DNA of 39,324 bases, from contig JANOTM010000006.1 of the NCBI GenBank assembly GCA_031416355.1, positions 1-39,324 on the forward strand. Reading direction: 5' to 3'. Below, in pieces: positions 15,953 through 39,324 of the stretch. This stretch comes from Gammaproteobacteria bacterium. Its GTDB lineage: Bacteria > Pseudomonadota > Gammaproteobacteria > Acidiferrobacterales > UBA6901. The notes below the pieces were generated by a model. That model saw nothing but the letters and a program-made list of their open reading frames with translations, was not told the DNA's origin and made no database searches. A program made the translations under genes and the position numbers. Position 1 is the stretch's first letter, and every line of letters begins with the position of its first letter.

Positions 15953-16018
15953 AATGATACGCCTAGGCTGCGGTTTATCGGGTACGAACTATATAGTGCC
16001 GCCTAACCGTCGCAGTAT

Positions 16019-16137
16019 GTAGGGTGGGCATCGCCCACCAAACGTGGCTTCGGTCGGCACACCTTGGTGGGCGATTCACTGGAAACTGCTCCTGCGTTTC
16101 CAGTACTTCCGCCATCCATGGCGGTCGCCCACCCTAC
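16019..16137. repeat. REP-type composite palindromic element in the rbfA-truB spacer
   Basis: GTAGGGTGGGCATCGCCCACC (16019-16039) faces GGTCGCCCACCCTAC (16123-16137) in inverted orientation. Inside are the hairpin GGAAAC-n9-GTTTCC and the palindrome CCGCCATCCATGGCGG (16109-16124). Confidence 0.8.
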
Positions 16138-16174
16138 AAACCAGGTGCTATATATATCGCTATGTTTAGCTAGC

Positions 16175-16543
16175 TTACGGTTCATTGTCACGGTCTTGAG
16201 CAAGGGCGCGGTCGATAAGACTAGAAATGGCCGCACCCTTCTCCACGGATTCGTCATACAGAAAACGCAATTGCGGGATGATACGCAGCTTCACCCTATT
16301 CTTAAGTCCATGGCGTAGAAAACCAGCGGCCTTATTGAGTACCTTGAGGGTTTCGGGGGCGTGTTCGATGCCGCTCAGCTGGGTGACATAGACCTTGGCG
16401 TGGGACAAATTCGGCGAAACATCCACCGACGTCAGGGTCAGCTGAACGATGCGGGGATCGTTCAGCTCACGCCGCATAAGCTCCGCCAGTTCGCGCTGGA
16501 GTAATTCGGCGATGCGGCGGGTGCGGCCGGTGTCTTTGGGCAT
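16175..16543 (-). CDS. rbfA: Ribosome-binding factor A
   Basis: 122 aa: RIAELLQRELAELM…DPR…LTLTSVDVSPNLSHAKVYVT. Confidence 0.93.
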   Translation of the reverse strand: MPKDTGRTRRIAELLQRELAELMRRELNDPRIVQLTLTSVDVSPNLSHAKVYVTQLSGIEHAPETLKVLNKAAGFLRHGLKNRVKLRIIPQLRFLYDESVEKGAAISSLIDRALAQDRDNEP

Positions 16544-21348: not shown

Positions 21349-21486
21349 GCGGAATAGCCGCGATTTTGACGGATTTTTTTGGAAATTCAAGGAATTATGG
21401 CGGGGTAATTAGGCTGAGCACACCAGCTTGTTCGGAACTTATACCCGCCATTAAGGCTTTCCCGCCTCCCTCGGAGGCTGAGGCTC

Positions 21487-22584
21487 TCAACGCTCCCGAA
21501 TACTCTCATGCCCCGCCTGCAACAACGGACTCAGAAAATACTCAATCAACCGGCGTTTGCCGGTTTTGATTTCGACCGCGACGCTCATGCCGGGGGTGAG
21601 GCGGATTTCTTTGGCGTCTACCTGGATGGTGGAACGGGTGAGGCTGACCTTGGCGGTGTAGACCAGGCCGACCTTGTCGATTTGTACGGCGTCGCGTGAC
21701 AGGCTGGTGACTTTGCCTTCGACGGTGCCGTAGCGGGTGAAGGGGAAGGCGTCGATCTTGACTTCGGCGTCTTGGCCTTCGTTGATAAAGCCGATGTCTT
21801 TGTTTTCGAGTATGGCTTCGACTTCGAGTTGGCCGTCTTCGGGGGCGACGACCAGGAGTTGTTGGGCGGGGGTGACGATGCCGCCTACGGTGTGGACGGC
21901 GAGTTGTTGGACTACGCCGGCTATGGGGGCGGTGAGGTGTTGGGCGCCGGCGCGGGTGCCGGCCTTGGTCATTTCATGGGTGAGGGAGCGGGCGCGGATT
22001 TCGGCGGCGGATAGGGCGGTGCTGAATTCATTGGCTTTTTCGGCGCGTTCGCGTTCGACTTCGAGGTATTTGAGGCGGGCGACGTATTCCTGTTGGTACA
22101 GGGTTTTGTAGGCGGCGGCTTGGCTTTTGAGGGCGCGATATTCGGTGAGCTGGTCGTGCAGGCGGGCGCGTTCGGCTTGTACTAGGGCGGGGTTGGCGCC
22201 TGCGGGGACATCGAACCTGTCCTTGTCCGCTAGCAGGGCGCGTAGGCGCGCGACTTCGATGACGGCGGCGTGGTGTTCGTGTTGAAAGCGTTCTTGGTCG
22301 GGGCTGGCGGTGGTGTCGAGTTCGATGAGGGCGTCGCCCTGTTTTACACGGTCGCCGTCGCGTACGTGTATGGCTTTGATGACGCCGGCCTCTAGAGGTT
22401 GAATGACCTTGGAGCGGTCGCTTTGTATGACCTTGCCTTGGGCTACGGCGATGATGTCGATCTTGCCGAAGGCGGACCACAACAAGGCGACGGCGAATAC
22501 GCTGGTGATCGTTAGTGCCACTGCGCGGCCGGCGGGGGATGGTGGGGATACTTGGACTTCCAGCACTGCGGGTAAGAATTCCAA
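21487..22584 (-). CDS. hlyD: HlyD-family type I secretion membrane-fusion protein. It is orphan and its native start codon is missing
   Basis: Collinear with E. coli HlyD from EFLPAVLEVQVSPPSP, through the TM helix, to the terminal …EYFLSPLLQAGHESIRER. Homology continues upstream of the TTG at 22584 (…LQRHITAWQIAWATAQREEPLTVPKGKE) up to a stop at 22771-22773, with no ATG/GTG/TTG in between. Confidence 0.8.
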   Translation of the reverse strand: MEFLPAVLEVQVSPPSPAGRAVALTITSVFAVALLWSAFGKIDIIAVAQGKVIQSDRSKVIQPLEAGVIKAIHVRDGDRVKQGDALIELDTTASPDQERFQHEHHAAVIEVARLRALLADKDRFDVPAGANPALVQAERARLHDQLTEYRALKSQAAAYKTLYQQEYVARLKYLEVERERAEKANEFSTALSAAEIRARSLTHEMTKAGTRAGAQHLTAPIAGVVQQLAVHTVGGIVTPAQQLLVVAPEDGQLEVEAILENKDIGFINEGQDAEVKIDAFPFTRYGTVEGKVTSLSRDAVQIDKVGLVYTAKVSLTRSTIQVDAKEIRLTPGMSVAVEIKTGKRRLIEYFLSPLLQAGHESIRER

Positions 22585-22695
22585 TTCCTTGCCTTTGGGT
22601 ACGGTGAGGGGTTCTTCGCGCTGGGCCGTGGCCCAGGCGATTTGCCAGGCGGTGATGTGGCGTTGTAGGCCTTCGCGTATGGGGTGGGTCTGTTT

Positions 22696-22763
22696 GTAGG
22701 GTGGGGGCCCAGCACCACCGATTTTCCCTGTATCGGATGATGGTGGGGCAGGGCCCCACCCTC
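22696..22763. repeat. Degenerate REP-like inverted doublet lying over the 5' end of the hlyD reading frame
   Basis: GTAGGGTGGGGGCCCAGCACCACC … GGTGGGGCAGGGCCCCACCCTC. The arms resemble the GTAGGGTGGGCA..GCCCACC elements at 16019 and 35217. Confidence 0.55.
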
Positions 22764-22821
22764 TCGCGGGCTAGGTCGCACACGCGCATAATCGAAGCCA
22801 GTCTCGGCGGGGGGAGCGGCG

Positions 22822-24291
22822 ATGTTCCGGTTCGCGTGTGCATGGTCGGTGGTGGTGGCCGTGGTGTTGACGGCGGGATCCGGCGCCGCCACGTGGCAGG
22901 AAGCGGGTTGGATCGAGGACTTTGAGATCGCTCTCGACACCGCGCGTCGTTCGGGCAAGCCGGTGTTCGTCTACTTCGACGCCCCGTGGTGCAGCTGGTG
23001 CCAGCAGTACCGGCGCGACACGCTCGACAAGCCCGAGGTGCGGCAGGTGCTGGCGCGCGACTACGTTCCGGTCGTGGTGAATTACGACGCCCGCCCCGAG
23101 CTGATGCAGCGCTACGGCGGCAAGGGCCTGCCGTTTACCGTGCTGCTGTCGCCGCAGGCGCAGGTGCGCAACCGGTTCGTGGGCGTGATGACGCCCACCG
23201 ACCTCATTGACCTGCTCGCCAGGTTTCGAACCGGCGCGGCCGCGCCGCCGCCCGCGTTCGAAGCGGGACACGTCGTGCGGGTGGAGTCGCTCGATCGGCG
23301 CGGTTACGACGCCTTCCGCCGCGCCTTCCTCGCGCACCTCGAATCGCTGTATGACGCGCGCGCCGGCACCTTGATCGGTCGCTTCGAGACCGGCGCCACG
23401 TTGAAGCGTCCGTCGCCGCTCAGCTGGATCTATTTGATGGACCACGGCCTGTGGCCGGAGCGCGTACCGCGGGCAGCGGCGGCCGAGCGCGAGCGTCTGC
23501 ACGACCCACTCGACGGAGGATTCTTCAACTTTCTCGATCCTTCGCGTCCGGGCGGCGAGTATCTGGAGTCGTCGAAGATACTCGAGAGCAATGCCTGGCT
23601 CGCGGCCTGGATGGCGCGGGCCGGAAAAGAGAACGCCGTCGCGGCGCGCTCCGGTTGGTTCTACCTGCGAGATGTCCTGTGGGACAAAGAGCGCGGTGGA
23701 TTCTGGCAGGCGCAGGTGGCGGACGAAGGCTACTATCGCCTGCCGCGCGCCGAGCGCCGCCAGCGGACACCCCCGGCGCTCGATCGCATCAAGCGCGCGG
23801 ATACCAACGCCCAGGCGGCGCTGGCGCTGTTGCGCATGGGGCAGGCGTTAAAGGATTCGCGCATGATCGACTTCGCGGCGCGGACGCTCGACTTCGTGCT
23901 GGTCACCATGGTGCGCGAGGACGCGCTGTATCACGCGTGGCGCGAGGGCGGTCTCACCGGCCCGGGATTGCCGCAAGACCTGTTCTGGGTGCTGGCAGCG
24001 GGCGCCGAGCTCGAACGCGAGCGGCCCGATGCGAAACGCCGCGCGGTGCTGGACCGGCTGCGCATCGAAGCCGCGCGCTGGCTGGCGCAACGAATGCGCG
24101 CAAATGAAATCTTGCCTGTGGAGTTTGCCGGCCTGATCGCGTGGGTGGCGCGGGACGAGGCGGGGCCGTTCCCGCCGGGCGCACGCGACTGGGCGCTGCG
24201 CCAACTGCGTATCGAGGCCGAGACCGCGCCGGATGAGCTGGTATTGGGCCTGCGCGCGTGGGACACCGCGCGGCCGCAGCGCACGCGTTAG
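22822..24291 (+). CDS. Secreted thioredoxin-fold protein of the DUF255/YyaL type, with a helical (alpha/alpha-toroid-like) C-terminal region
   Basis: Signal peptide MFRFACAWSVVVAVVLTAGSGAA. The pattern …ALDTARRSGKPVFVYFDAPWCSWCQQY…DYVPVVVNYDARPELMQRY matches the DUF255 pattern, with CxxC at 22990-23001. A later block is DPLDGGFFNF…ESSKILESNAWL. Confidence 0.6.
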   Translation: MFRFACAWSVVVAVVLTAGSGAATWQEAGWIEDFEIALDTARRSGKPVFVYFDAPWCSWCQQYRRDTLDKPEVRQVLARDYVPVVVNYDARPELMQRYGGKGLPFTVLLSPQAQVRNRFVGVMTPTDLIDLLARFRTGAAAPPPAFEAGHVVRVESLDRRGYDAFRRAFLAHLESLYDARAGTLIGRFETGATLKRPSPLSWIYLMDHGLWPERVPRAAAAERERLHDPLDGGFFNFLDPSRPGGEYLESSKILESNAWLAAWMARAGKENAVAARSGWFYLRDVLWDKERGGFWQAQVADEGYYRLPRAERRQRTPPALDRIKRADTNAQAALALLRMGQALKDSRMIDFAARTLDFVLVTMVREDALYHAWREGGLTGPGLPQDLFWVLAAGAELERERPDAKRRAVLDRLRIEAARWLAQRMRANEILPVEFAGLIAWVARDEAGPFPPGARDWALRQLRIEAETAPDELVLGLRAWDTARPQRTR

Positions 24292-24564
24292 TTCTGTGGT
24301 ATCTGCGTCAGGTAAATTTTGTGGCGTTTTTTGCGCCGTTTATCAACGGCGGTTCCGGGACGACGCCTTCAAGTTGTGTAAGCGTTGTTGCACAGGCGCG
24401 CACCACGCCCAAGACGCTTGTTGGCAAGGGGAGTTCCACGCGCCGAGCCCCGCGCACATGGCGCTGTTAAAGTTTCCGACGCCAGGCTTTGCACGCAGAG
24501 GAGCGCGGACTCGTTCACCCGGTGACGGGGGAAGACAGGCAGTGGGCCGCGTCCCCCGCCGCGC

Positions 24565-27531
<2,967 letters not shown>

Positions 27532-28061
27532 AGCTGTTCCTTGTGCAGGAGCTGCCGGATACGCAGCGCCTCATTATGGAGCCGCAGATATTCGCCCGCG
27601 CTGTGGCGCCAGGAAAAATACTGGCGCATGCCGGTTAACTGAATCTACTTCCAGGAACGCCGGTCGCGGTACAACGCCAACGCGCGCCGTGCGGCGCCGG
27701 TGGTGATCGCCACGCTTGCCTCCACCACAAGTATAGAAGGTATAAAGCCCCTTTTCCCTGAAAACCATCGTCCGTGGTCCGGGTTCAGTAACCCGTGATC
27801 GCGCTCCTCGCCAGATGCACGCATCCGAGTTTTGGGAAGAATGCGGCAGAGAGACCCAAATCAGCAAACCGGCGGGCGTTTTCGTGGGCGGGAATGGCGC
27901 CCGCCTGACAGTGAACGCGAGAGCACCCGTGCCGATGCCCCGTGAGGCATCGCTGCGATGCGGCGTGTGTACTCAGATTAGAACAGGTGGCCAAACACCA
28001 CGGTAGCGGACCACCTGCAAGTAGCTGGAGCTGTTTCCGTAGGTCAGTAGGGTCAAATGAC

Positions 28062-28118
28062 ATGTCTCGCCCCCTGCGACTGGAGTTTGCAGGCGCGCTC
28101 TACCACGTCACTTCGAGG
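28062..28118 (+). pseudogene. 19-codon N-terminal stub of a REP-associated tyrosine transposase (RAYT, IS200/IS605-like Y1 family)
   Basis: MSRPLRLEFAGALYHVTSR matches the conserved RAYT N-terminus (M.RP.R.EF.GA.YHVTSRGN…). Similarity ends abruptly after HVTSR. Confidence 0.5.
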
Positions 28119-28521
28119 ACCTCAGGGTCATGTTTTGTCTTTTACCTTCTCCGCCACCGTCACGATCCGGCACGGGCGAGCGTGCGGTAGACCGCAACCA
28201 AGTTACCCAGAGGACAGTTTGCGGCCAGAAGCAGCCGGTCGGCCCAGCCTAGAAGCGGTCGTTCAACATCAATGCTCAGTGGCGGCAAAGCCATCCGCTG
28301 CAGCGCCTTGGGCATAGTCGCTTAGATGCGGTTCTTTTCCACAAGCCTTCGGTAGTGCTCTCCGAGCGCAGTAAGCCTGCACGCCTTACTCTCCATCGCA
28401 GCGTTCCACATGTGAGGCGCGTCCACTGGAACAAGTAAATTTAGTCTGTTGTATCTCTGAAGCACTGCGAACGATCGTGTGTTCTCGGGATTCGGAGGGG
28501 GCATTCCAAGGCCCCGGCCCA

Positions 28522-30042
28522 TCATTTCCGGCTCGTAGGTCGGATCGAGAGGAAACTCGAAACCGGGCGAGGGAAAAACTCAGTAAGTCGGCGCAAGTCC
28601 GAAGTAGGAATCGGAGGCGACATCTTCCGCAAGGAAACAAACTGCTTCACGTTAGTTTTAAGGACGGGTCTCTGTTCCCAGGCGCCAAGCGATTGATCTA
28701 TGTGTGCATACACACTGCCAGGAGTAATGTCGCCAGTAAGACCGAGTTTCATGTCACGCTGGGCACTTTGATTCAGCGCGGCTTCCATGCCGGTAAAGTC
28801 TAGGGACAGATTGCCCGCGGTATCGGTGACGATGCCTATGGCCTCCATATAGGGCTTGAGGCGCGTATCCAGCAGGAGTCCGTCATATACCGATTGCCTT
28901 AAGGCGGCATAGCTTTGCGTGAGCAGATCGAGCTGGGCTTGGGCGATGGGCAAAGGGATGATCTTGATGGGGGACTGCAGGCCGGTATTTGCCGGTTGAG
29001 TGGGATCCTTCACACTGTAGGAGACGGTGGCGCTTTGTTGGCGTAGCAAGACTTGGTCGAAATTGAAGAAATACCTTCCATTGAATTTCTCAAGCGTATC
29101 CAGCAGGTTGATCCAGTATTTGAATTCGGGACTTTGCAGGCTTTGGTAGGTTTGCCAGAACACCGAGGTGCTGGGGGGTGCCGCACCGGAGGCGACGGTA
29201 AAATTATTGGCGGCGGTTTGTAGCGATTGCACCGTGAGATTGCCAAACGACAACATGGGCAGCAGGTTATTGGCGATGGCGCGGTCAACGAAGTTGGTGA
29301 GATTGCTGGTATTGCCTCAAGCGTCGATCAGCCCATCGAGCTGGGCCAGTTGAGCGGCGCGCGTGGGGGCGGCGGCGTAATTCGTGAGGGCGGTAGTCAG
29401 AGCAGGGCTTAACGAGGCGGCTTCGCGTAAATCGCGCACCAGGCCGGAGCCGCTCATCGTGGGCAGGGCCTGGGCTGCGGGGGTAATGGCCACGGGGGTG
29501 GTGAAGTTGCTATAAAAGGTGTTTTCCCGAAAGTCCGCGTCGGCGAGTTTACCGGTGGTGGCTAAAGTACTGGTGGTGCCGTTGGCATAGGTGAAGGTGC
29601 CGATATCGGCGATGCGGGAGCCGTCGGGGAGGATTTGGTTGGCGGCGGTCTTGGTCAGAGACAGGGATAGTATATTGAGTTGCGGTAAGCTCAGGAGTTC
29701 GCCAGCTTGGCTTACCGCGCCGCTGTTGGCGTCGCGCCAGACGCGGACGTTGTTGAATTGGGTATCGCTGGCGTTGAAGACGCCATCCTTGTTGGTGTCG
29801 AGATCGGCCAGGGCGGCGAAGCCGTCGAAGGCGGTCTGGCCGTTGCCTAATAAAGTGCTGTCGCCGAACAGTTCTCTGCCACTGTCAATCACACCATTGC
29901 CGTTACGGTCTAGGACCAATAAGCCATCTTGGGGCGTGACCCAACTGGTGGCGGTTTTGATGCCGTCGCCGTCGTGGTCGAATAATATAGGGTTGGTGGG
30001 ATGGCGTTGATGCCGTCGGCGTTGAGGTCCCTTAAGCCTCAC
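28522..30042 (-). pseudogene. Internal fragment of a large RTX-type/T1SS-substrate calcium-binding exoprotein. It has one in-frame TGA (29317-29319) and a 5' frameshift
   Basis: FDHDGDGIKTATSWVTPQDGLLVLDRNGNGVIDSGRELFGDSTLL…FAALADLDTNKDGVFNASDTQFNNVRVWRDANSGAVSQAGELLSLPQLNILSLSL is the D.DGDG/DRNGNG/D.N.DG module common in RTX exoproteins. ORFs 29317-30042 and 28522-29256 share a frame and are separated only by TGA (…[13 protein letters not shown]…). Upstream, DLNADGINAI lies in another frame. Confidence 0.65.
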
Positions 30043-30346
30043 CCATAGCGAAACTATTGTGCATCGACGTATTGTTCCATTCTCCTAAAATGGCGGCATA
30101 ACGGAAAGCGAATACTTGCTCGACACAATAAGCGAATTATCGTACGGCACTAAAAGCGAGCTACAGGACACAGGTATAGCAAAGCCTTCGGAAAAATTGG
30201 CTGAATCTCTCGCTGAAAGGTGCCAGGGTTGGCCAGAATATCGGTTCCTTTACCGATTTCTGGCACGATCGGTTGGTGCCGGATTAAAAGGAAAGCTTGT
30301 TCTAAAACTTCCTTTAAATTACAAGACTGCCAAATTTGCTATGCAG

Positions 30347-30480
30347 TGATCTATACATAGGTCACCAAGCGGTCTAAAGGTCTATGTTTAGATCATTTTA
30401 TCATTGCACAATGCACTGGGTACTGCTAGTATGATCTATACATAGATCACAAGATGATCTTGTGATCTATGTATAAGTCA
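30347..30480 (+). promoter_or_regulatory. hipBA promoter/operator region with three 18-bp palindromic sites
   Basis: The sites are TGATCTATacATAGgTCA (30347-30364), TGATCTATacATAGATCA (30432-30449) and TGATCTATgtATAaGTCA (30463-30480). There is also a perfect nested inverted repeat, AGATCACAAGAT g ATCTTGTGATCT (30444-30468). A candidate -35 TTGCAC (30404-30409) and -10 TAGTAT (30427-30432), 17 nt apart, abut site 2. Confidence 0.6.
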
Positions 30481-30491
30481 TATGCGAAGCC

Positions 30492-30830
30492 ATGCCCAAA
30501 TCAACGACACGTACATATTCCCGCTATAGCCGCGCGGCAATTGCCCTGCTCGGCGGGCTGATTCGTGCTGCCCGCAAGGAACGGAAGATGACGGTATTAG
30601 AAGTATCCGAGCGCGCTGGTATTTCCAGAGGATTGCTACAACGGATCGAAAAAGGCGATCTGAAATGCGGGATCGGCGCAGCCTTCGAAGTTGCTGCAAT
30701 TGTTGGCATCAACCTGTTTGACGCGGAAGAATTATCGCTGACAGGGCGTATCCGTCAAACAGAAGACAAGCTGGCACTGCTGCCGAAATCCGTGCGCAAG
30801 AAAACAAGGGTAGTTACCGATGACTTCTAA
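30492..30830 (+). CDS. hipB: HipB-like XRE-family HTH antitoxin/repressor
   Basis: 112 aa. HTH_XRE core LIRAARKERKMTVLEVSERAGISRGLLQRIEKGD. Overlaps the downstream hipA by 11 nt. Confidence 0.8.
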   Translation: MPKSTTRTYSRYSRAAIALLGGLIRAARKERKMTVLEVSERAGISRGLLQRIEKGDLKCGIGAAFEVAAIVGINLFDAEELSLTGRIRQTEDKLALLPKSVRKKTRVVTDDF

Positions 30831-32082
30831 AAACGCGTACCGCGAAGCGTATGTATGGATTTGGCTACCTGAAGCAACAACACCCGTTGTGGCCGGAAAG
30901 TTGGAGGCTGAAAACGGCAATTTTCTGTTCAACTACGGCAAAACCTACCTTGAGAGAATGAACGATAAGCCCGCGGCCATTTCCATTTACGAGCCTGAGC
31001 TTCCATTGAAGGCAGGCGTGTTACCGCTGCCAGATGGGCTGCACATGCCCAGCTCCATCCGTGATGCCGCTCCCGATGCTTGGGGTCGGCGGGTCATCAT
31101 CAATAAAAAGCTGGGGCTCAGAGGCACGAACACAGATACCACGACACTGGATGAACTGACTTACCTTCTAGAGTCTGGTTCTGACCGGATCGGTGCGCTA
31201 GATTTCCAGCACTCACCGAGCGAATACGTCCCACGTTCCGCGGCAAACGTGACCTTGGAGGAGTTGCTTGAATCAGCTCAGCGTGTTGAACGCGGTGTGC
31301 CACTAACGCCCGAACTCGATCAAGCCCTGTTCCACGGAAGTTCTATCGGCGGCGCGCGTCCCAAGGCTCTGGTCGAAGATCGAGACAAGAAGTATGTCGC
31401 CAAATTCTCTTCGGACTCGGATTTATACAGCGTCGTCAAAGTTGAATATATCGCCATGAGGCTGGCCGCACTCGCGGGTCTTAATGTTGCTCCGGTCAAG
31501 TTAATCACCGCGGCAAACAAGGACGTGCTGCTCATTGAACGTTTTGATCGCAAGAAGACGCCAAAAGGATGGACACGCAAGGCCATGGTTTCCGCACTCA
31601 CCCTCTTTGCTCTTGATGATATGGCAGCAAGATATGCAAGCTATGAAACGCTGGCGGAAATCATCCGTCACCGCTTTACCAATCCAAAGAAAACGCTGGA
31701 AGAACTTTTCTCCCGTCTTGTCTTTAACATTCTTTGCGGCAATACGGATGACCACGCACGTAATCATGCGGCCTTCTGGAACGGAAAGAACCTCCGCCTC
31801 ACGCCGGCTTACGATATCTGTCCCCAGGGGCGAACAGGCAATGAGGCATCGCAAGCAATGCTGATTTCGGGGAACAACAATTTGAGTAAGCTCACTACGT
31901 GCCTTAAAACAGCCAGCAACTTTCATCTTTCGGAAGAGGATGCGCACGCGATCATTGAGAAACAGAAGGCAACCATAGAGACTCGCTGGGATGACGTGTG
32001 CGATGAAGCCAAACTCAGCGAAGTAGACAGGAATCTATTCTGGAAACGGCAGTTTCTTAACCCTTTTGCATTCCAGGACTAA
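30820..32082 (+). CDS. hipA: HipA-family serine/threonine-protein kinase toxin (type II TA)
   Basis: 420 aa. HipA N-terminal coupling domain. GSSIGGARPKALV loop, catalytic GNTDDHARNHAAFW, and YDICP. Confidence 0.85.
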   Translation: MTSKNAYREAYVWIWLPEATTPVVAGKLEAENGNFLFNYGKTYLERMNDKPAAISIYEPELPLKAGVLPLPDGLHMPSSIRDAAPDAWGRRVIINKKLGLRGTNTDTTTLDELTYLLESGSDRIGALDFQHSPSEYVPRSAANVTLEELLESAQRVERGVPLTPELDQALFHGSSIGGARPKALVEDRDKKYVAKFSSDSDLYSVVKVEYIAMRLAALAGLNVAPVKLITAANKDVLLIERFDRKKTPKGWTRKAMVSALTLFALDDMAARYASYETLAEIIRHRFTNPKKTLEELFSRLVFNILCGNTDDHARNHAAFWNGKNLRLTPAYDICPQGRTGNEASQAMLISGNNNLSKLTTCLKTASNFHLSEEDAHAIIEKQKATIETRWDDVCDEAKLSEVDRNLFWKRQFLNPFAFQD

Positions 32083-32160
32083 AACACTTATCCCGCCGTT
32101 TATGCGTCACGGCGAAGATGTATATGTCTCGTGCGTTGATCTGGTCAGTGAAGCATCGCC

Positions 32161-33606
32161 CTAGGCCATGCCCCGAATGGCACGCGCGCACAATTCCATA
32201 AGCGTGCCCACCCACGGGGTAATAGCCACCATGGCCAGGGCGTTGATCCCAAGAAGAATGCGGAAATCCTTACTGGCCGTAATCGGTGCGACGTCGACCG
32301 GGGCGTCGAAATACATGAGCTTGATCACCCGCAGATAATAAAACGCACCTATAACAGACAATAGCACCGCGGCCACCGCCAACCATACCAGGTCGGCGGC
32401 TAGGGCCGCTTGTATGACCAGCAACTTGGCATAGAAGCCGGCGGTGGGGGGAATGCCGGCCATGGAGAACATGAGCAGCAACATTAATAGCGCATGCCAC
32501 GGGCTGCGTTGGTTGAGGCCGCGATAGTCGTCGAGGTGCTCGGCCTCGAAACCGGCGCGGGACAATAAAATAATCATGCCAAAGCCTCCCAGGCTCATGG
32601 CGGTGTACACCAGCATGTAGAACATGGCGGCACCATAACCATTGGGACTGGCGCTCAATATGCCCAGCAGAAAAAACCCCATGTGCGAAATGGTGGAGTA
32701 CGCGAGCATGCGTTTAATATTGGTCTGGGCGATGGCAACGATGTTGCCTATGGCCATAGACAACAAGGCCATGATGATCAACATGTCCTGCCACACTGGC
32801 GCCAGCTCTTGGAGTCCGCCGACCAACAAGCGCATAACCATGGCCAAGGCCGCCAACTTGGGCGCGGTGCCTAAGTATAAGGTCACGGCGGTGGGCGCAC
32901 CGTGGTAAACGTCGGGTATCCACATATGGAACGGCGCCGCCCCAAGTTTAAAAGAGATGCCCACGATCACAAATACCAAACCAAACACCAAAACCATATT
33001 ATCGATCGGCATAACGCCGATGCGTTCTTTGACCAGGGCAATTTCCAACGTACCGGTGAGGCCATACAATAGGGACATGCCGTACAGCAACATGCCCGAG
33101 GCCAGCGCCCCCAGCACAAAATATTTCATGGCCGCCTCGGTGGCCGCCGCGGAATCGCGCTGAAACGCCACCAAGGCATAGAGGCTGAGGGCGAGCAATT
33201 CCAGCCCCAGGTAAAGGCTGAGAAAATGGCTGGCGGACGCCATGACCATCATGCCGACCATGCCGAAAAGCGCGAGCACGAAATATTCGCCCTTGTACAT
33301 GGCGCGTTCGCGTAAATAGTCGCGCGAATACACCAACACCAAAAAGGTGGCGCCATAGATGGCGAGCTTGAGCACGTCGGACAGGGTGTCGTGCACAAAC
33401 ATATTGTTGAAGGTGTGGCCCGGTTCCGCACCGAAACCGCGCAAGGTCAGCAGTGCCGCGCCGACCAGGGTTAACAAAGATAAACCGTAGCTAAAGTCAC
33501 GGCGCGCATTGGTTAAAAATACATCGACCATGAGTATCACGCACGCCATGGAGAACACGAAGATCTCCGGCAGCACGGGTATGAAATCGGGCGTGACAAA
33601 ATTCAT
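32161..33606 (-). CDS. nuoN: NADH-quinone oxidoreductase subunit N
   Basis: 481-aa polytopic antiporter-like subunit. It is the last gene of the nuo series and follows nuoM after 32 nt. Confidence 0.92.
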
Positions 33607-33638: not shown

Positions 33639-35120
33639 TCACAGTTTACTCACCGCTACTTGCTCCAGCAGGTGTTGCACAGAAACATGCATCACATCCA
33701 GGAACGGATAGGGCCATAGGCCCATTACCAATACCGGGACCGCCAACAGTCCCAGCACCAGGGCCTCGCGCGGACTCACATCGGTCAGCTTCTCGACCGC
33801 GGCATTGGCGACCTCGCCGAAAATCACGCGCTTGTACATCCATAAGGTATAGGCAGCGCCGAATATCAACGTCGTAGCGGCGAGCGCGGCATACCAAAAA
33901 TTGACCTGGAACGCACCCAGGATCACCAGAAACTCGCCGACAAAACCGGAGGTGCCCGGCAGCCCGGCATTGGCCATGGCGAATAACATCATGAACGCCG
34001 CGAACACCGGCATGCGATTGGCGACGCCGCCGTAATCGCCGATCATGCGCGAGTGCATGCGGTCGTATAATACACCCACACACAGAAACAACGCGCCGGA
34101 CACGAATCCGTGGGAAATCATTTGCGCGATGCCGCCCTCCACGCCCTGGGCGTTAAACACAAAGAAACCCAGGGTGACGAAACCCATGTGGGCGATGGAC
34201 GAGTAAGCGATGAGTTTTTTCATGTCCTGCTGCACCAGCGCCACCAGCCCGATATAAACAATGGCAATGAGAGACAGGGCAATCATGATCCACGCCAGTT
34301 TATGGCTCGCATCCGGCAGTATCGGCAGACTGAAACGCAGAAAACCGTAGGCCCCCATTTTCAACATAATGGCCGCCAGCACCACGGAACCGCCGGTGGG
34401 TGCCTCCACGTGCGCATCCGGCAGCCACGTATGTACCGGCCACATGGGCACCTTCACCGCAAAGGCCAAGAAGAAAGCGATGAAAATCAGTATCTGCTCG
34501 TTCAGACTGAGCTTCATGGCATGCAGCGCGAGAATATCGAAGCTGTTGCCATTGTGCAGATACATATAGACCAGGGCCACCAGCATCAATACCGAACCCA
34601 GCAGCGTATACAGAAAAAACTTCATGGTGGCGTACACACGGTTCGGCCCGCCCCACACGCCGATAATGACGAACATGGGAATCAGCATCGCCTCCCAGAA
34701 CACATAGAACAGCATGGCATCCAGGGCGGAAAACACGCCTATCATTAGGCCTTCCATGAACAGAAACGCCGCCATGTACTGGGCAACTTTCTGTTGTATC
34801 ACCTGCCAGCCGGCGATGACTACTAGCAAGGTGGTGAAACTGGTCAAGAGGATGAACAGCACCGAGATACCGTCGATACCCAGGCGGTAATGAATATTGA
34901 AGGCGGCTATCCATACGTGCTGCTCTTGGAACTGCATGGCGGCGGTGTGCGCGTTAAACCCGATATACAGCGGCAGCGTGACGATGAACGCCGCCAGGGC
35001 AACGACCAGGCTGATGACTCGGGCACGACCGGCGTAGGCGTCACCGCCGGTGAGCAACACCGCCACCCCGCCGATGATGGGCAGCCAGATGGCCAGACTC
35101 AGTGCATGATCAGCAAACAT
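33639..35120 (-). CDS. nuoM: NADH-quinone oxidoreductase subunit M
   Basis: 493 aa. Has the conserved …WLPDAHVEAPTGGSVVLAAIMLKMG… block. Confidence 0.95.
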   Translation of the reverse strand: MFADHALSLAIWLPIIGGVAVLLTGGDAYAGRARVISLVVALAAFIVTLPLYIGFNAHTAAMQFQEQHVWIAAFNIHYRLGIDGISVLFILLTSFTTLLVVIAGWQVIQQKVAQYMAAFLFMEGLMIGVFSALDAMLFYVFWEAMLIPMFVIIGVWGGPNRVYATMKFFLYTLLGSVLMLVALVYMYLHNGNSFDILALHAMKLSLNEQILIFIAFFLAFAVKVPMWPVHTWLPDAHVEAPTGGSVVLAAIMLKMGAYGFLRFSLPILPDASHKLAWIMIALSLIAIVYIGLVALVQQDMKKLIAYSSIAHMGFVTLGFFVFNAQGVEGGIAQMISHGFVSGALFLCVGVLYDRMHSRMIGDYGGVANRMPVFAAFMMLFAMANAGLPGTSGFVGEFLVILGAFQVNFWYAALAATTLIFGAAYTLWMYKRVIFGEVANAAVEKLTDVSPREALVLGLLAVPVLVMGLWPYPFLDVMHVSVQHLLEQVAVSKL

Positions 35121-35216
35121 GGTTCAAGTCTCGCTTAGAGTCCCTAACAAAATGATCGGAACTGCTGCTAAACATAGCGACATAAATAACGCCGCAAAAC
35201 TGGGGTAGTGATTATT

Positions 35217-35284
35217 GTAGGGTGGGCATCGCCCACCGCAACACGCCAGACTACGCCCCTGATGGTGGGCAATGCCCACCCTAC
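35217..35284. repeat. REP doublet (inverted pair)
   Basis: GTAGGGTGGGCATCGCCCACC (35217-35237) … GGTGGGCAATGCCCACCCTAC (35264-35284). Confidence 0.85.
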
Positions 35285-35301
35285 ATAATCTAGCTCTGGC
35301 C

Positions 35302-35352
35302 CTCGGCAACTGCTCCATGCGTTGCTCTACCTCCTGCATCCATGCAGTCGTC
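35302..35352. repeat. 51-nt module, copy A1
   Basis: CTCGGCAACTGCTCCATGCGTTGCTCTACCTCCTGCATCCATGCAGTCGTC. Confidence 0.85.
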
Positions 35353-35364
35353 ACCCCTACCCCT

Positions 35365-35463
35365 CTCGGCAAATGCTCCCGGCTTTGCTCTACCTCCTCG
35401 GCGGCGGTTCCCGACGCCGCTCTACCTCCTCCATCCCTGGAGTCGTGCATCCATGCAGTCGTC
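35365..35463. repeat. 99-nt long variant of the module, copy A2
   Basis: It has the same first 34 nt and last 17 nt as the 51-nt unit. The internal insert is CGGCGGCGGTTCCCGACGCCGCTCTACCTCCTCCATCCCTGGAGTCGT. It differs from copy A4 at only 5 positions. Confidence 0.85.
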
Positions 35464-35607
35464 CCACGGGAGGCGAGACGGAGCAGTCGCGTATGTTCAG
35501 TGGACATACGCGCCGTCGAGCGGGTGCGCGGAGGTTTGCGCACCCCGGCGGGAATTAGGGATGAGGGCAATGTAGCATGCGGTTTCATTTTTTTAGCGGC
35601 TCTTAGA

Positions 35608-37566
35608 TCAGACGTGGAGGAAAAACGTCATCAGCAGAAACAGGCCGATGATCATGGCAAAGGCATAATGATAGATATAGCCGGATTGGACATGGCGCAC
35701 CGCGGCGGATACCCAGGCCACCACACGCGCCGTGCCGTTCACCATGAGTCCATCGATCAGCCTCACGTCCCCGGTCTTCCACAGTAGGCGGCCGATGGCG
35801 CGCGCACCGCCGGCCAGCACGATGTCGTTAAAGGCATCGAACCCGTACTTATGCATAAGGATGGTGTAGAGCATGTGCGTGCGACCGCGTATGCGTTCCG
35901 GCAGTTGCGGCGAACGAATATACAGCAGCCACGCCAAACCGAAGCCCGCCACCAGCAGCAACATGGGCAAAGACTGTAGTCCATGGGCCAAGAAACGGCC
36001 CATGTGGAAATCCTGGCCCATGACGGCCAGCACATCGTGCTGCGGCAACACCTTTATAGCGTCCTGGAAGAAACCTTTAAATAGCATGGGCTTCATATAA
36101 AACCAGCCGATGAATACCGAGGGTAAGGCCAGCATGACCAGGGGGATGAGCACCACCAACGGTGATTCCTTGAGGTGGTGCTGCGTATGCTCGTCCATGC
36201 GCGGCTTGCCGTAAAACGCCAGAAACAACATGCGGAACGAATAAAACGCGGTCACGAACACGCCCGCGGTCACGGCGACGTAGGCAAACCCGCTGCCGGG
36301 GAGATGCGAATGGTGCACCGCCTCGATGATGGCGTCCTTGGAGAAAAATCCGGAGAACCCGGGAAATCCCACCAGTGCCAAGGTCCCGGCCCAGGCCGTG
36401 AGAAAAGTGACCGGCAGGTATTTTTTCAAGCCGCCCATCTTGCGCAGATCTTGCTCGTGGTGCATGGCCATGATCACCGAGCCGGCCGCGAGGAACAGCA
36501 GCGCCTTAAAAAACGCGTGCGTCATGAGATGGAACATGGCGGCGGCGTAAGCCGAGGCGCCTAGGGCCACGGTCATATAACCCAGTTGCGACAGGGTGGA
36601 ATACGCCACCACGCGCTTGATGTCGTTCTGCACCATGCCAAGAAAGGCCATGGATAGGGCGGTAATGGCGCCTATGACCATCACCACCGACAGGGCGGTC
36701 TCGGACAATTCAAACAGCGGCGACATGCGCGCCACCATGAAGATGCCCGCGGTCACCATGGTGGCCGCGTGGATCAGGGCGGAAATGGGCGTGGGGCCTT
36801 CCATGGAATCCGGCAGCCACACGTGCAACGGCACCTGCGCCGACTTGCCCATGGCGCCGATGAACAGCAGTATGCATATCAAGGACATGACATTCCAAGG
36901 CACACCGGGTATGACCTGAACCGTCTGAGTCGCCAGCTGCGGCGCGATGCTGAACACCGCGGCATAGTCCAGGCTGCCGAAGTGCAAGTAGATCGCGGCG
37001 ATGCCAAGAAGAAATCCGAAATCACCCACGCGGTTGACCAGGAACGCCTTGAGGTTGGCCTTGATCGCGGACGGGCGTGTGTGCCAGAAACCGATCAGTA
37101 GATACGAAACCAGGCCCACCGCCTCCCAACCGAAGAACAACTGCAGAAAGTTGTTGGACATCACCAGCATCAACATGGCGAAGGTAAACAGGGCGATGTA
37201 ACTAAAGAAGCGCTGATAGCCGGGGTCGTCGCGCATATAACCTATGGTATAGATATGCACCATCAGCGACACGAAAGTCACCACCACCATCATCAGGGCG
37301 CTCAAGGGATCGATGAGAAAACCGATCTCCATGGGGATGAGGCCGCTCACGCCCCAGACATATACAGTGCCGTTGAACACATGGCCACGACCCACCACAT
37401 CCTGAAACACCACCAGAGACAGACCGAACGCCACGCTCACACCCAGGATGGCGGCGACGTGCGCGCCGATGCGCCCGATCTTCCAGCCCAACAGGCCGGC
37501 AATGAGCGCGCCCGCTAGGCACGCCAGGGGTATGGCAAGATAGATATTTTGCATGTGGTCGAACAT
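35608..37566 (-). CDS. nuoL: NADH-quinone oxidoreductase subunit L
   Basis: 652 aa. Has …WLPDSMEGPTPISALIHAATMVTAGIFM… and the long C-terminal lateral-helix region. Confidence 0.95.
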   Translation of the reverse strand: MFDHMQNIYLAIPLACLAGALIAGLLGWKIGRIGAHVAAILGVSVAFGLSLVVFQDVVGRGHVFNGTVYVWGVSGLIPMEIGFLIDPLSALMMVVVTFVSLMVHIYTIGYMRDDPGYQRFFSYIALFTFAMLMLVMSNNFLQLFFGWEAVGLVSYLLIGFWHTRPSAIKANLKAFLVNRVGDFGFLLGIAAIYLHFGSLDYAAVFSIAPQLATQTVQVIPGVPWNVMSLICILLFIGAMGKSAQVPLHVWLPDSMEGPTPISALIHAATMVTAGIFMVARMSPLFELSETALSVVMVIGAITALSMAFLGMVQNDIKRVVAYSTLSQLGYMTVALGASAYAAAMFHLMTHAFFKALLFLAAGSVIMAMHHEQDLRKMGGLKKYLPVTFLTAWAGTLALVGFPGFSGFFSKDAIIEAVHHSHLPGSGFAYVAVTAGVFVTAFYSFRMLFLAFYGKPRMDEHTQHHLKESPLVVLIPLVMLALPSVFIGWFYMKPMLFKGFFQDAIKVLPQHDVLAVMGQDFHMGRFLAHGLQSLPMLLLVAGFGLAWLLYIRSPQLPERIRGRTHMLYTILMHKYGFDAFNDIVLAGGARAIGRLLWKTGDVRLIDGLMVNGTARVVAWVSAAVRHVQSGYIYHYAFAMIIGLFLLMTFFLHV

Positions 37567-37568
37567 GG

Positions 37569-37874
37569 TCAGCCTTTCAGGGTATCCAAGTCGTCGACGT
37601 TAATAGTATTGCGGTTGCGGAACAGCACGATCAATATCGCCAGGCCGATGGCGGCCTCGGCCGCGGCCACGGTAAGTATAAAGAATACAAACACCTGTCC
37701 GGCGCTATCCCCGAGATAGCGCGAAAACGCCACGAAGTTCATGTTCACCGCCAGTAGATTCAACTCTATGGCCATGAGCAGGATCACCACGTTCTTGCGA
37801 TTGAGAAAAATCCCCATCATGCTCAGGGCGAATAGGATCGCCCCGAGTATAAGATAATTGGACAGTGGTATCAT
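37569..37874 (-). CDS. nuoK: NADH-quinone oxidoreductase subunit K
   Basis: 101 aa, three TM helices: …[19 protein letters not shown]…[13 protein letters not shown]…. Confidence 0.95.
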
Positions 37875-37930
37875 TTTCTTACCCTAGAGTTCCTAGCAAA
37901 ATGAAAACGCAAATCGCCTTAGCCCTCATC

Positions 37931-37981
37931 CTCGGCAACCGCTCCCGGCGTTGCTCTACCTCCTGCATCCATGCAGTCGTC
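37931..37981. repeat. 51-nt module, copy A3
   Basis: CTCGGCAACCGCTCCCGGCGTTGCTCTACCTCCTGCATCCATGCAGTCGTC. Confidence 0.85.
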
Positions 37982-38077
37982 GGCAACCGCTCCCGGCGTT
38001 GCTCTACCTCCTCGGCGGCGGTTCCCGACGCCGCTCTACCTCCTCCATCCCTGGAGTCGTGCATCCATGCAGTCGTG
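37981..38077. repeat. Long variant of the module, copy A4 (abuts A3)
   Basis: CGGCAACCGCTCCCGGCGTTGCTCTACCTCCTCGGCGGCGGTTCCCGACGCCGCTCTACCTCCTCCATCCCTGGAGTCGTGCATCCATGCAGTCGTG. Confidence 0.85.
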
Positions 38078-38291
38078 TCCTTCTCCCACAGGGCATAGGT
38101 ATCTACACAAGTGACCCGCATACCCAAAATAAACGTCCCTTCTCCCCCACGGGGAGAAGGACAGGATGAGGGGGAGTTGGGTGAAAAACGGCATTTTAAT
38201 ACCCTCACCCTACCCTCCCCCACTGACGTGGGAGAGGGAACCGCTTTGTTAGGCACTCTTAGACCCTCGGCCGCTAAACCATGCATCGTTT

Positions 38292-38897
38292 TCATCCGCC
38301 CTTCTTCTCCGCCGCCATCTTTACCAGGCGCACGCGATCTTCGCGCCGCACGCGTATCTGCTCGGACGGATTCTGGTATTTAGTCTGGCGCCGACGCAAC
38401 GTCAGGACGATGGCCGCGATGATCGCCACCAGCAATATCAGCGCCGCGATTTCAAACGCATACACATATTCGGTATACAACAACCGGCCCAGTTCGCGCG
38501 TGTTGCTGTAACCGGCGGGATGGCTCGGCGGCAACGGCATTTTTTCCAGACCGAAGCGCCCGGCGTTGAGGATAATGATCATCTCCGCCACCATGAGCGC
38601 TGCGACGATGGCGCCTATGGGCAGATAATCGCCGAATCCCTCGCGCAATCGCACCAGGTTGATGTCCAACATCATCACTACAAACAGGAACAGCACCATG
38701 ACCGCGCCCACGTACACCAGCACCAAGGTGATGGCGAGGAATTCCGCCTCCAGCAGCACCCACAGGCCGGCGGCGCTGAAAAACGCCAGCACCAAGAACA
38801 GGGCCGCCTTCACCGGATTGCGTATGGTGATCACCATGGTGGCGGCGAATACCAGTATTCCGGCGAAGATATAGAAAATATATTGTTCAGGTGTCAT
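38292..38897 (-). CDS. nuoJ: NADH-quinone oxidoreductase subunit J
   Basis: 201 aa: MTPEQYIFYIFAGILVFAATMVITIRNPV…LEAEFLAITLVLVYVGAVMVLFLFVVMML. Confidence 0.93.
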   Translation of the reverse strand: MTPEQYIFYIFAGILVFAATMVITIRNPVKAALFLVLAFFSAAGLWVLLEAEFLAITLVLVYVGAVMVLFLFVVMMLDINLVRLREGFGDYLPIGAIVAALMVAEMIIILNAGRFGLEKMPLPPSHPAGYSNTRELGRLLYTEYVYAFEIAALILLVAIIAAIVLTLRRRQTKYQNPSEQIRVRREDRVRLVKMAAEKKGG

Positions 38898-38941
38898 GGC
38901 TCTACCCAGGAACCCGGCCTAAGGCCGCACGAACTCTCCTT

Positions 38942-38992
38942 CTCGGCAAATGCTCCCGGCTTTGCTCTACCTCCTGCATCCATGCAGTCGTC
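38942..38992. repeat. 51-nt module, copy A5
   Basis: CTCGGCAAATGCTCCCGGCTTTGCTCTACCTCCTGCATCCATGCAGTCGTC. Confidence 0.85.
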
Positions 38993-39186
38993 CCGCGTGC
39001 GGGAGAAGGTGGCCCACAGGGCCGGATGAGGGAAGAGACCGCACGGTTCCGGGGTACAATTCGCGACCATGGCGGGTCGTGCGGTCTCTCCCGCGTGCGG
39101 GAGAAGGTGGCCCGCAGGGCCGGATGAGGGAAGCGACCGCCCGCTCCCGGAACCCACCGTAATTAGGTGGGTCGGGCGGTCTCTCG
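38991..39186. repeat. Two tandem copies of a 98-nt structured unit in the nuoI-nuoJ spacer
   Basis: Both copies start TCCCGCGTGCGGGAGAAGGTGGCCC(A/G)CAGGGCCGGATGAGGGAAG (38991 and 39089). Each ends in a long hairpin: AGAGACCGCACG…CGTGCGGTCTCT (39034-39045 / 39078-39089) and AGCGACCGCCCG…CGGGCGGTCTCT (39132-39143 / 39173-39184). Confidence 0.85.
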
Positions 39187-39231
39187 CACTCGTCAAAGGC
39201 ATGGTATCCATCAGTCTATCCACAGTGGTTA

Positions 39232-39324
39232 TCAACGGTAACGCGCGTCCTGCGCGCGGTCGGCTGCAATCTGTTTTTCATGTTGGTCGCCCACCGCCAG
39301 CAGCATGGACTTGCTGTAATTGAG
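39232..39324 (-). CDS. nuoI: NADH-quinone oxidoreductase subunit I, C-terminal 30 codons (gene continues off the right edge)
   Basis: Own minus-strand translation gives LNYSKSMLLAVGDQHEKQIAADRAQDARYR*. This matches the usual NuoI tail (…Y.K..LL..GD..E..IA…DA.YR). TGA at 39232-39234. Confidence 0.7.
   Translation of the reverse strand, partial: LNYSKSMLLAVGDQHEKQIAADRAQDARYR

Follow-up and report, generated by a model that had tools for sequence, protein, structure and literature searches.

Probable IS5-type miniature elements with mosaic interiors in the nuo operon spacers of an uncultured gammaproteobacterium

The window, i.e. the whole 39,324-nt stretch of contig JANOTM010000006.1 (assembly GCA_031416355.1) that was analysed here, originates from an uncultured, Acidiferrobacterales-like soil gammaproteobacterium. 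It carries nuo genes, which encode respiratory complex I, and the nuoL-nuoM (L-M) and nuoJ-nuoK (J-K) spacers between these genes are filled by two elements, E1 and E2. A preliminary description, made from the letters alone, had likened both to transposable elements of the miniature inverted-repeat type (MITEs). The genes, elements and terminal inverted repeats (TIRs) are listed below, with nuoJ to nuoN identified by open reading frame (ORF) calls and Pfam, and E1 and E2 by a search for termini and a comparison with empty sites.

32161-33606, minus strand: nuoN
33639-35120, minus strand: nuoM
35138-35602, minus strand: E1, a 465-nt probable MITE in the L-M spacer
35138-35155 and 35585-35602: TIRs of E1
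35135-35137 and 35603-35605: the 3-bp TTA flanking E1 on the plus strand (TAA in the sense direction)
35608-37566, minus strand: nuoL
37569-37874, minus strand: nuoK
37887-38258, minus strand: E2, a 372-nt probable MITE in the J-K spacer
37887-37904 and 38241-38258: TIRs of E2
38259-38261 and 37884-37886: target duplication of E2 on the plus strand, TTA and a degenerate CTA, respectively
38292-38897, minus strand: nuoJ
38898-39231, minus strand: nuoI-nuoJ (I-J) spacer, 334 nt versus 35 nt in locus L003, with no IS5-type termini
39232-39234, minus strand: stop codon of nuoI

The spacers measure 32 nt (M-N), 487 nt (L-M), 2 nt (K-L), 417 nt (J-K) and 334 nt (I-J), the same values as in the preliminary description when recounted from the ORFs. 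The nearest NuoK homologues, 93-95% identical and labelled Acidiferrobacterales, come from compact operons, and the spacers of these sister lineages are 5-7 nt for E-F, 17 nt for D-E, 52-58 nt for J-K and 20-21 nt for L-M. In 80 more distant relatives from metagenomes, J-K typically measures -4 nt, the genes overlapping by ATGA, and most L-M spacers span 11-30 nt. The NuoK metagenome scan served as an outgroup for spacer length; all relatives it returned were at most 85% identical, and no further alleles of this species were among them. Based on the compact sister and distant operons, spacers of 300-500 nt are peculiar to the lineage of the window. Besides J-K and L-M, the I-J, D-E and E-F spacers are expanded in this lineage; these hold similar internal repeats and lack IS5-type termini. 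The sister lineages L211-L215 have an M-N spacer of 119-125 nt (e.g. L211 13776-13899) versus 32 nt in the window, so expansion hits different junctions in different lineages.

E1 and E2 end in inverted repeats of 18-22 bp of the form GAG..CCTAACAAAATGA (sequence of the ends: GAGnnCCTAACAAAATGA), with a 3-bp TAA/TTA duplication outside. The four termini given in the preliminary description were found again where it had placed them, and direct comparison of the quoted 22-mers reproduced the 18/22 agreement between the ends of E1. When the 22-nt end consensus was searched with up to three mismatches, exactly four matches were obtained in the 39-kb window, these being the four element ends, while 100 shuffles gave 0 matches. 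The boundaries of both elements were refined by comparing empty with filled sites.

Ten loci carrying exactly the same NuoK protein were retrieved and their spacers were read in the mRNA sense. Among all carriers and non-carriers, NuoK is 100% identical as a protein and the nuoK DNA differs at 14 of 306 positions at most (3/306 between the empty L003 and the window), so the insertions represent a presence/absence polymorphism in one species-level population. The empty J-K site, 43 nt in L003, L008, L009 and L010, consists of a 30-nt flank, TAA and GGGCAAGAAA. In L004, L005 and L007 (type B, 294 nt), a flank of the same 30-nt length is followed by TAA, a 248-nt element with the ends GAGCCCCTAACAAAATAA ... 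CATTGTGTTAGGAAATC, another TAA and the same ten bases. The filled site of L004 thus equals the empty site plus the 248-nt element plus a second TAA, exact to the nucleotide, so that 3 bp of the target were duplicated precisely. In the window, the 30-nt flank and TAA are followed by the 372-nt element (37887-38258) and then TAG GGTAAGAAA.

At this same J-K TAA, no fewer than four distinct fillings occur. Type A gives spacers of 321 nt in L006, 369 nt in L001 and 417 nt in the window and L002, followed by type B, type C (146 nt, L217), in which the 5' terminus is lost and a repetitive extragenic palindromic (REP) doublet stands in its place, and type D (559 nt, L225). The target TAA belongs to a TAAGG stretch upstream of the nuoK start, and the duplication keeps one copy beside nuoK. 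In L225 (~540-722), a second, different MITE-like element of ~180 nt adjoins the first in the J-K spacer, with perfect 20-nt inverted ends (GCAGGTTGCTGAAAAACCCCG / CGGGGTTTTTCAGCAACCTG) and TTA on each side.

The L-M site is empty in L004, L005 and L217 and then measures 18 nt. In the window it reads TGA TC TAA, E1 (35138-35602), TAA GCGAGACTTGAACC, and removing E1 together with one TAA leaves 19 nt. That related strains lack the element at both junctions favours mobility.

The termini were also recovered at other genomic sites. A further copy, L226, lies on a contig of the metagenome-assembled genome (MAG) GCA_031427175.1, the source of L002, directly upstream of an antiporter gene; its modules form a palindromic array whose 3' end (TCATTTTGTTAGACGCGCC) is degenerate. 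This MAG holds the element in at least three places (J-K, L-M and L226), to which one join in L218 can be added. On that contig (1020-1369), nuoJ is followed by the 5' half of a type-A element, which runs through another 3' end (…TTTTTGTTACGGACTC/TTA) into a cytochrome-c-like gene (motif CAVCHGDD). Two MITE copies may truly have been rearranged with each other here, or the assembly may be chimeric by way of the repeat.

The presence of empty alleles also bears on whether the long spacers could be ancestral, i.e. a functional, non-mobile sequence such as a regulatory RNA or a site for nuo mRNA processing that some strains have lost. The strong predicted RNA structure (z ~ -5, see below) would suit such a function. 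However, the spacers are short in all sister lineages and in the 80 more distant relatives, the empty alleles retain just one TAA, located precisely at the junction, and strains filled at the same site differ in their interiors, which have no Rfam match, making an ancestral spacer hardly credible.

Scanning one genome from each species for the end motif TWAGAGNNCCTAACAAAAT yielded at least 120 loci, none of those listed coming from the source genome of the window. Among the 120 listed, which cover many phyla, 64 have an inverted pair of the motif, nearly always with matching TAA/TTA flanks. By size, the paired motifs in these listed matches form short elements of 50-350 nt, among them dozens of MITEs, and a tight class of 889-901 nt. 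In L102 and L067 (890-901 bp), both from phyla other than that of the host, two overlapping ORFs correspond to PF13340 (DUF4096, the N-terminus of IS4/5 transposases) and PF01609 (DDE_Tnp_1). The ends start with GAG and are flanked by a 3-bp TWA duplication, as in insertion sequences (ISs) of the IS427/IS1031 type within the IS5 family. IS1237, an 899-bp IS5-family element of the IS427 group with IS1031-like traits, is described as having inverted repeats that start with GAGGTGG and the direct repeat TTA(TAA) (PMC2516522). A blastn comparison of the window with the 120 listed loci returned two short REP-like matches and nothing else. Within an Acidiferrobacterales MAG, a family of 120-nt MITEs (L020, L096, L124) encloses a REP doublet between the same ends, and the L085 copy contains the GGCATAGGTATCTACACA segment of E2. 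A 155-nt MITE with the near-identical ends GAGCACCTAACAAAATGACTCT / GAGTGCCTAACAAAATGAATCG is present in L026, L030, L039, L045, L058, L068 and L081, from MAGs labelled Pirellulales, Planctomycetota or Sedimentisphaerales, and the end motif occurs in one archaeal MAG (L110) among the matches listed.

The elements are small (248-465 nt) and the ORFs spanning them match no Pfam family. Neither element encodes a transposase, as stated in the preliminary description, and none was found among the ORFs examined in the window. With IS5-type ends, a TAA duplication and no transposase, E1 and E2 fit the definition of a MITE. Our preferred explanation, to which we assign a probability of roughly 0.87, is that they are non-autonomous MITEs derived from an IS5-family IS of the IS427/IS1031 type and mobilised into the nuo spacers. 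Since they encode no transposase, they must have been moved in trans, presumably by a DDE transposase of the IS427/IS1031 group. Insertion would have occurred at a TAA (TWA) target with duplication of those 3 bp, and the landing places would have been the short J-K and L-M spacers of the Acidiferrobacterales-like host. The initial comparison with MITEs is thus supported by the empty sites, the target duplication and the same ends elsewhere, i.e. in L226, L218 and many phyla.

Several observations weigh against this explanation. The duplication of E2 is imperfect, with TAA on one side and TAG on the other, the second copy being short of 1 nt. At L-M, the empty alleles (GCGCGAGCGACTTGAACC) lack a TAA and have diverged from the window, so that the L-M target duplication is read from the flanks alone. 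The three or four interiors at one J-K TAA fit one old, remodelled insertion as well as repeated insertions. As regards a high copy number, the species cluster has yielded no more than ~3-4 copies so far. Finally, the other expanded nuo spacers are without termini, hence transposition by TIRs explains a part of the operon expansion only.

The interiors of the elements and of the I-J spacer contain the following repeats.

35167-35287, plus strand: REP doublet (REPIN-like) in E1, GCTAAACATAGCGA...TGTAGGGTGGGCATCGCCCACC...GGTGGGCAATGCCCACCCTACA
35303-35352, minus strand: 48-nt two-hairpin module, variant 1 (the former "51-nt unit"), in E1
35366-35462, minus strand: the former "99-nt variant" in E1, a variant-2 module (35398-35447) inside a variant-1 module
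37932-37981, minus strand: 48-nt module, variant 1, in E2
37980-38076, minus strand: nested module pair in E2, variant 2 (38012-38061) inside variant 1
38943-38992, minus strand: variant-1 module in the I-J spacer
38991-39052 and 39089-39150, minus strand: two 98-nt direct repeats in the I-J spacer

The preliminary description had called E1 and E2 homologous, each with a 51-nt unit followed by a 99-nt variant. Homology is borne out for the termini and the internal modules, while the remaining cores are not homologous. A 50-51-nt unit is common to both elements and a 97-nt block is 97% identical between them, in the order and orientation described; the 99-nt block, however, is a nested pair of modules, and I-J holds the unit a third time. 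Read from the E1 block, the nesting is GGATGCA^(CGACTCC...GCCGA)^GGAGGTAGAGC, the variant-2 module interrupting the variant-1 module between GGATGCA and GGAGG. The 51- and 99-nt modules are independent 48-nt insertion units, and the elements are mosaics instead of two copies of one unit.

In the sense direction, the module has the form CGAC-TGCATGGATGCA-GGAGGTAGA-GCAACGCCGGGAGCGGTTGC-CGA, with GTAG before the second hairpin, and the second variant carries CTCCAGGGATGGAG and GCGGCGTCGGGAACCGCCGC. In 13 distinct modules, compensatory changes preserve both hairpins: 88.8% of cells are paired, compared with 73% for shuffled sets, none of 500 of which came up to the real value; in the stems, 6/11 pairs are changed on both sides, and slid controls are 28-61% paired. 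Strain comparison revealed clean insertion sites, GGGA^GAAGG in I-J (empty in L001, filled in L002) and GGGA^GAAGA in E-F, the site being approximately A^GRRGG. At one J-K position, the number of modules varies from one in L006 to two in L001 and one plus the nested pair in the window and L002.

Among the 225 loci examined, modules are confined to the cluster of the window and four loci found through the module peptide. In three MAGs (L221-L223), two modules lie in frame within grpE (3028-3077 and 3355-3404), part of an hrcA-grpE-dnaK-dnaJ operon, and the product including the modules still matches PF01025. In L224, one module is located near the 3' end of a gene for an extracytoplasmic function (ECF) sigma factor (3532-3581). 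An in-frame module adds the peptide DDSRDGGGRAASGTAAE. With a length of 48 nt, a multiple of three, and in-frame copies in a conserved gene such as grpE, the modules in grpE and the sigma-factor gene behave, as judged from these sequences, like Rickettsia palindromic elements (RPEs), here in a gammaproteobacterial lineage.

The REP doublet of E1 has a GTAG head and an imperfect palindrome in an inverted doublet, its arms (35216-35237 and 35264-35285) being 95% complementary. Its motif GTAGGGTGGGC..GCCCACC matches REPs associated with RAYT transposases; the 48-nt modules likewise hold GTAG followed by a covarying stem. A second REP doublet (~15990-16175) occupies the rbfA-truB spacer (222 nt, 15953-16174, minus strand) in opposite orientation. 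This copy reads GCTAAACATAGCGA...TGTAGGGTGGGC...GCCCACCCTACA in the plus strand orientation and has an extra hairpin between the arms. Other hairpin families, namely CCTTCTCCC..GGGAGAAGG followed by GGATGAGGG, GCGTATGTCC..ACATACGC and GGCATAGGTATCTACACA, are common to different nuo spacers (D-E, E-F and I-J included), in either orientation. The suggestion that a uniform module orientation leads to a G-rich, Rho-poor mRNA was dropped, as the E-F modules are oppositely oriented.

These mosaics could also have arisen in place, by stepwise accretion of repeats resembling REPs or bacterial interspersed mosaic elements (BIMEs), either RAYT-driven or by slippage, in which case the termini would be repeat units or a host motif. 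Such accretion would be in line with interiors composed of at least four repeat families that also fill I-J, D-E and E-F without termini, with modules gained or lost individually between strains, and with type C (L217), which lacks the 5' terminus yet holds a REP doublet. We nevertheless consider it improbable given the L004 allele, in which empty site, element and duplicated TAA add up to the nucleotide. Moreover, the same termini and 3-bp duplication bound IS5-family ISs and many MITEs in unrelated phyla, the termini in the window appear solely as inverted pairs at the element ends, and the copies L226 and L218 at other loci already point to mobility. Under the preferred explanation of mobilised IS5-type MITEs, the interiors are mosaics of 48-nt modules, nested and varying in number, a GTAG-type REP doublet in E1 and the other hairpin families.

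In the window, L001, L002 and L006 alike, each of the expanded nuo spacers has one open sense frame, with no stop between the flanking genes. The ORFs in these frames are as follows.

35124-35588, minus strand: sense ORF across E1 (L-M), 154 codons (149 in L001)
37879-38295, minus strand: sense ORF across E2 (J-K), 138 codons in the window and L002 (122 in L001, 106 in L006)
38894-39235, minus strand: sense ORF across I-J, 113 codons in the window and L002 (74 in L001)
E-F spacer: sense ORF of 137 codons in L001 and 170 in L002, its ATG overlapping the nuoE stop and its end lying 2 nt before nuoF
D-E spacer (L002): sense ORF over 97 of 115 codons

The E1-spanning ORF starts with an ATG in the 5' TIR, 19 nt past the nuoL stop, and its stop is a copy of the duplicated TAA, 3 nt before the nuoM ATG. 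For E2, the ATG overlaps the nuoJ stop (ATGA) and the stop lies 4 nt before the nuoK ATG. Across I-J, a TTG overlaps the nuoI stop (TTGA) and the TGA overlaps the nuoJ ATG (ATGA). In the D-E ORF, the ATG comes 36 nt past the initial base of the nuoD stop codon, and its stop begins 23 nt before the nuoE start. In strains with a filled I-J spacer, the nuoI stop is TGA (39232-39235 in the window), which creates the TTGA start/stop overlap of the spanning ORF; in L003, with an empty 35-nt I-J spacer, it is TAA (3518-3520) and the TTGA-type start is absent.

The remaining two sense frames mostly contain several stops each (1-10). Based on dinucleotide shuffles, the p value of the stop-free run in any frame is 0.004 for L-M, 0.006 for J-K, 0.017 for E-F, 0.025 for D-E and 0.11 for I-J, and a Fisher combination of the five gives ~1e-5. 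With all 48-nt modules deleted, p values of 0.022, 0.028, 0.033 and 0.23 were obtained, or ~4e-4 when combined with D-E. All indels between strains inside the frames are multiples of three (96, 6, 3, 69, 48, 48 and net 15 nt), and the only 1-nt indel is upstream of the ATG of a spanning ORF. Substitutions are spread evenly over the codon positions (14/15/16 in E-F; 31 nonsynonymous versus 14 synonymous). Variant-1 modules are read in two frames, giving DDCMDAGGRAKPGAFAE in I-J and TTAWMQEVEQRRERLP in J-K and L-M, so the peptide is not conserved. Pfam returned no family at threshold for the spanning ORFs; the best match of the E1-spanning ORF is a sub-threshold MSL2-CXC (E 0.0081, 16.7 bits versus a cutoff of 26.7 bits).

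On account of the single open sense frame per spacer and the indels in multiples of three, the spacers might be taken to encode genuine nuo-operon proteins of 138-170 aa, and gene callers do annotate some of them (L002 9280-9696 and 2559-3071; L006 625-945). We regard this as highly unlikely and reject the spanning ORFs as proteins, with no Pfam family at threshold, no third-position bias in the E-F substitutions and a variant-1 module that is read in two frames. The ORFs are, furthermore, absent from strains with an identical NuoK and consist of repeats whose stems covary at the DNA level. NuoK matches with N-terminal extensions (P0001-P0003, P0037 and others) were considered as ORF-NuoK fusions and discarded as internally duplicated, probably chimeric, or mis-started.

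The indels in multiples of three, together with the unconserved peptide, suggest selection for ribosome read-through, short of proof. Among coupling arrangements, NTGA overlaps are the most frequent; coupling fades within tens of nucleotides and Rho loads on untranslated RNA (PMC12548453), so that a relay frame could plausibly neutralise an insertion of such length. Tentatively, the insertions may have been tolerated since each was kept or filtered as such a relay frame, with ribosomes restarting on the overlapping NTGA, reading through and stopping near the next nuo start. Whatever the peptide, a frame of this kind might keep the coupling, keep Rho off several hundred nt and melt the hairpins, including the terminator-like one in E2 (see below), although we think it somewhat doubtful that this is how the spacers work.

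Sites without an insertion may be bridged as well. The uninterrupted J-K sites have a 16-codon ATGA...ATGA bridge (L003 4162-4204 and L008-L010; 43 nt), and in L211 (9943-10000, 58 nt) a 21-codon bridge starts with an ATG overlapping the nuoJ stop and ends with a TGA overlapping the nuoK start. In most other relatives, nuoJ and nuoK simply overlap by ATGA. Type D of L225 holds a bridge of 188 codons (11/12/0 stops per frame), a biased sample for bridging because this locus was found through an ORF search. What counts against a relay frame is that the 146-nt spacer of L217 is not bridged, and that the modules, by their own make-up, have a length divisible by three and no stop in the frames in use. 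The rbfA-truB spacer was tried as a bridging test within the window and is a counter-example, having no spanning sense ORF (p = 0.27). The sister-lineage spacers of 66-125 nt are too short for this test.

At the RNA level, the spacers with E2 and E1 are each predicted to collapse into a closed, very stable domain (-184 kcal/mol with z = -5.3, and -219 kcal/mol with z = -5.1, respectively), and in the fold predicted for E1 the TIRs pair as the outermost stem. One further feature was located in E2.

38137-38161, minus strand: terminator-like hairpin in E2, an 11-bp stem CCTTCTCCCCGTGGGGGAGAAGG followed by U-rich ACGTTTATTTT

This hairpin lies on the mRNA (sense) strand, which qualifies the lack of polar effects assumed in the preliminary description, and is conserved in L001, L002 and L006. 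A promoter scan found nothing inside E1 and E2, and Rfam at the gathering threshold reported a tRNA elsewhere in the whole window and nothing more. Lowering the threshold to E <= 1 for 35100-39324 gave three sub-threshold matches to eukaryotic miRNAs or snoRNAs, which were treated as chance. E1 and E2 are probably co-transcribed with nuo, and within that mRNA each would fold into its closed, very stable domain.

Outside the expanded spacers, the window differs from its relatives downstream of nuoN. In the sister Acidiferrobacterales L211-L213, rimP-nusA-infB-rbfA follows ~480 nt after nuoN. In the window, ~11 kb (about 21400-32100) separates nuoN (32161) from rimP (21045), with genes for a HipA-like toxin (30820-32082), for an AMP-binding/acyltransferase fusion (24565-27531) and for thioredoxin-like and HlyD-like proteins. 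This stretch looks like a strain-variable island; L001 has a MazE-like gene there. At 30347-30482, two imperfect palindromes of ~50 nt (TGATCTATACATAG..), 85 nt apart, lie just upstream of a 112-codon ORF (30492-30830) preceding hipA; a HipB-like repressor might use them as operators.

Since operons with internal MITEs or REP-like repeats have been described before, the main result extends a known class by one member and introduces no new principle. Less ordinary is the combination of nested repeat families in TIR-bounded carriers with five filled junctions of one essential operon in one population, as are the presence of the 48-nt module both in mosaics and in frame in grpE and the spanning reading frames. 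The population amounts to a natural experiment, since its strains share one complex I operon that differs in the number of 150-560-nt insertions (0, 1 or several) at exact junctions, so that what these insertions cost can be measured. It also displays a hierarchy of repeats in repeats in a MITE, in which the 48-nt module links REP-type with RPE-type behaviour. If the frames are under selection, they would be a way for bacteria to neutralise the polarity of mobile DNA in essential operons, and would explain some of the "hypothetical proteins" called between operon genes in MAGs.

Compared with known systems, E1 and E2 are closest in their ends to the IS427/IS1031 ISs of the IS5 family such as IS1237, with which they have in common the GAG ends, the TAA/TTA (TWA) duplication and relatives of 889-901 bp with two overlapping ORFs (PMC2516522). 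Unlike these ISs, the nuo copies are without a transposase. At 248-465 nt, the nuo elements are large relative to the 50-350 nt of most same-end MITEs listed, an extra length due to the other repeats lodged inside. The eukaryotic counterpart of IS5-type MITEs is PIF/Harbinger with its Tourist MITEs.

Correia elements of Neisseria duplicate TA, unlike the nuo elements, which duplicate TAA. On reading, the ends of E1 and E2 showed no similarity to the termini of Correia, ERIC or RUP/BOX elements, and E1 and E2 were not assigned to these families. Correia, ERIC of enterobacteria and RUP/BOX of pneumococcus are small inverted-repeat elements that are co-transcribed inside operons (PMC10969869, PMC3049150). 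Like E1 and E2, they are short, TIR-bounded or palindromic and situated between genes of one transcription unit, and they form long mRNA hairpins, which are predicted in the nuo case. The location inside an essential operon is therefore unusual, but not unprecedented.

RAYT-associated REPs of Haemophilus show the form of the E1 doublet, GTAGGGTGGGC..GCCCACC (PMC2817692). Likeness to the REP/REPIN/BIME systems, whose RAYTs are IS200/IS605-like, also extends to the GTAG and compensated stem of the modules and to their strain-variable number. The modules differ from REPs and BIMEs in being tandem or nested in direct orientation, with two hairpins and a fixed length of 48 nt, and in occurring inside coding sequence as well. 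As with RPEs, which are short palindromic repeats with a length in multiples of three that lie in frame in conserved genes (PMC10969869), the modules have in-frame copies in grpE. They belong to other organisms, however, have another sequence, measure 48 nt versus about 150 bp and are also abundant in intergenic mosaics. BrickBuilt of Porphyromonas gingivalis is likewise a MITE with a variable-number tandem interior and is always intergenic (PMC4596501). Its repeats are 23 nt long and its neighbours do not necessarily form one operon, whereas the nuo modules are 48 nt long, structured and also found outside the MITE.

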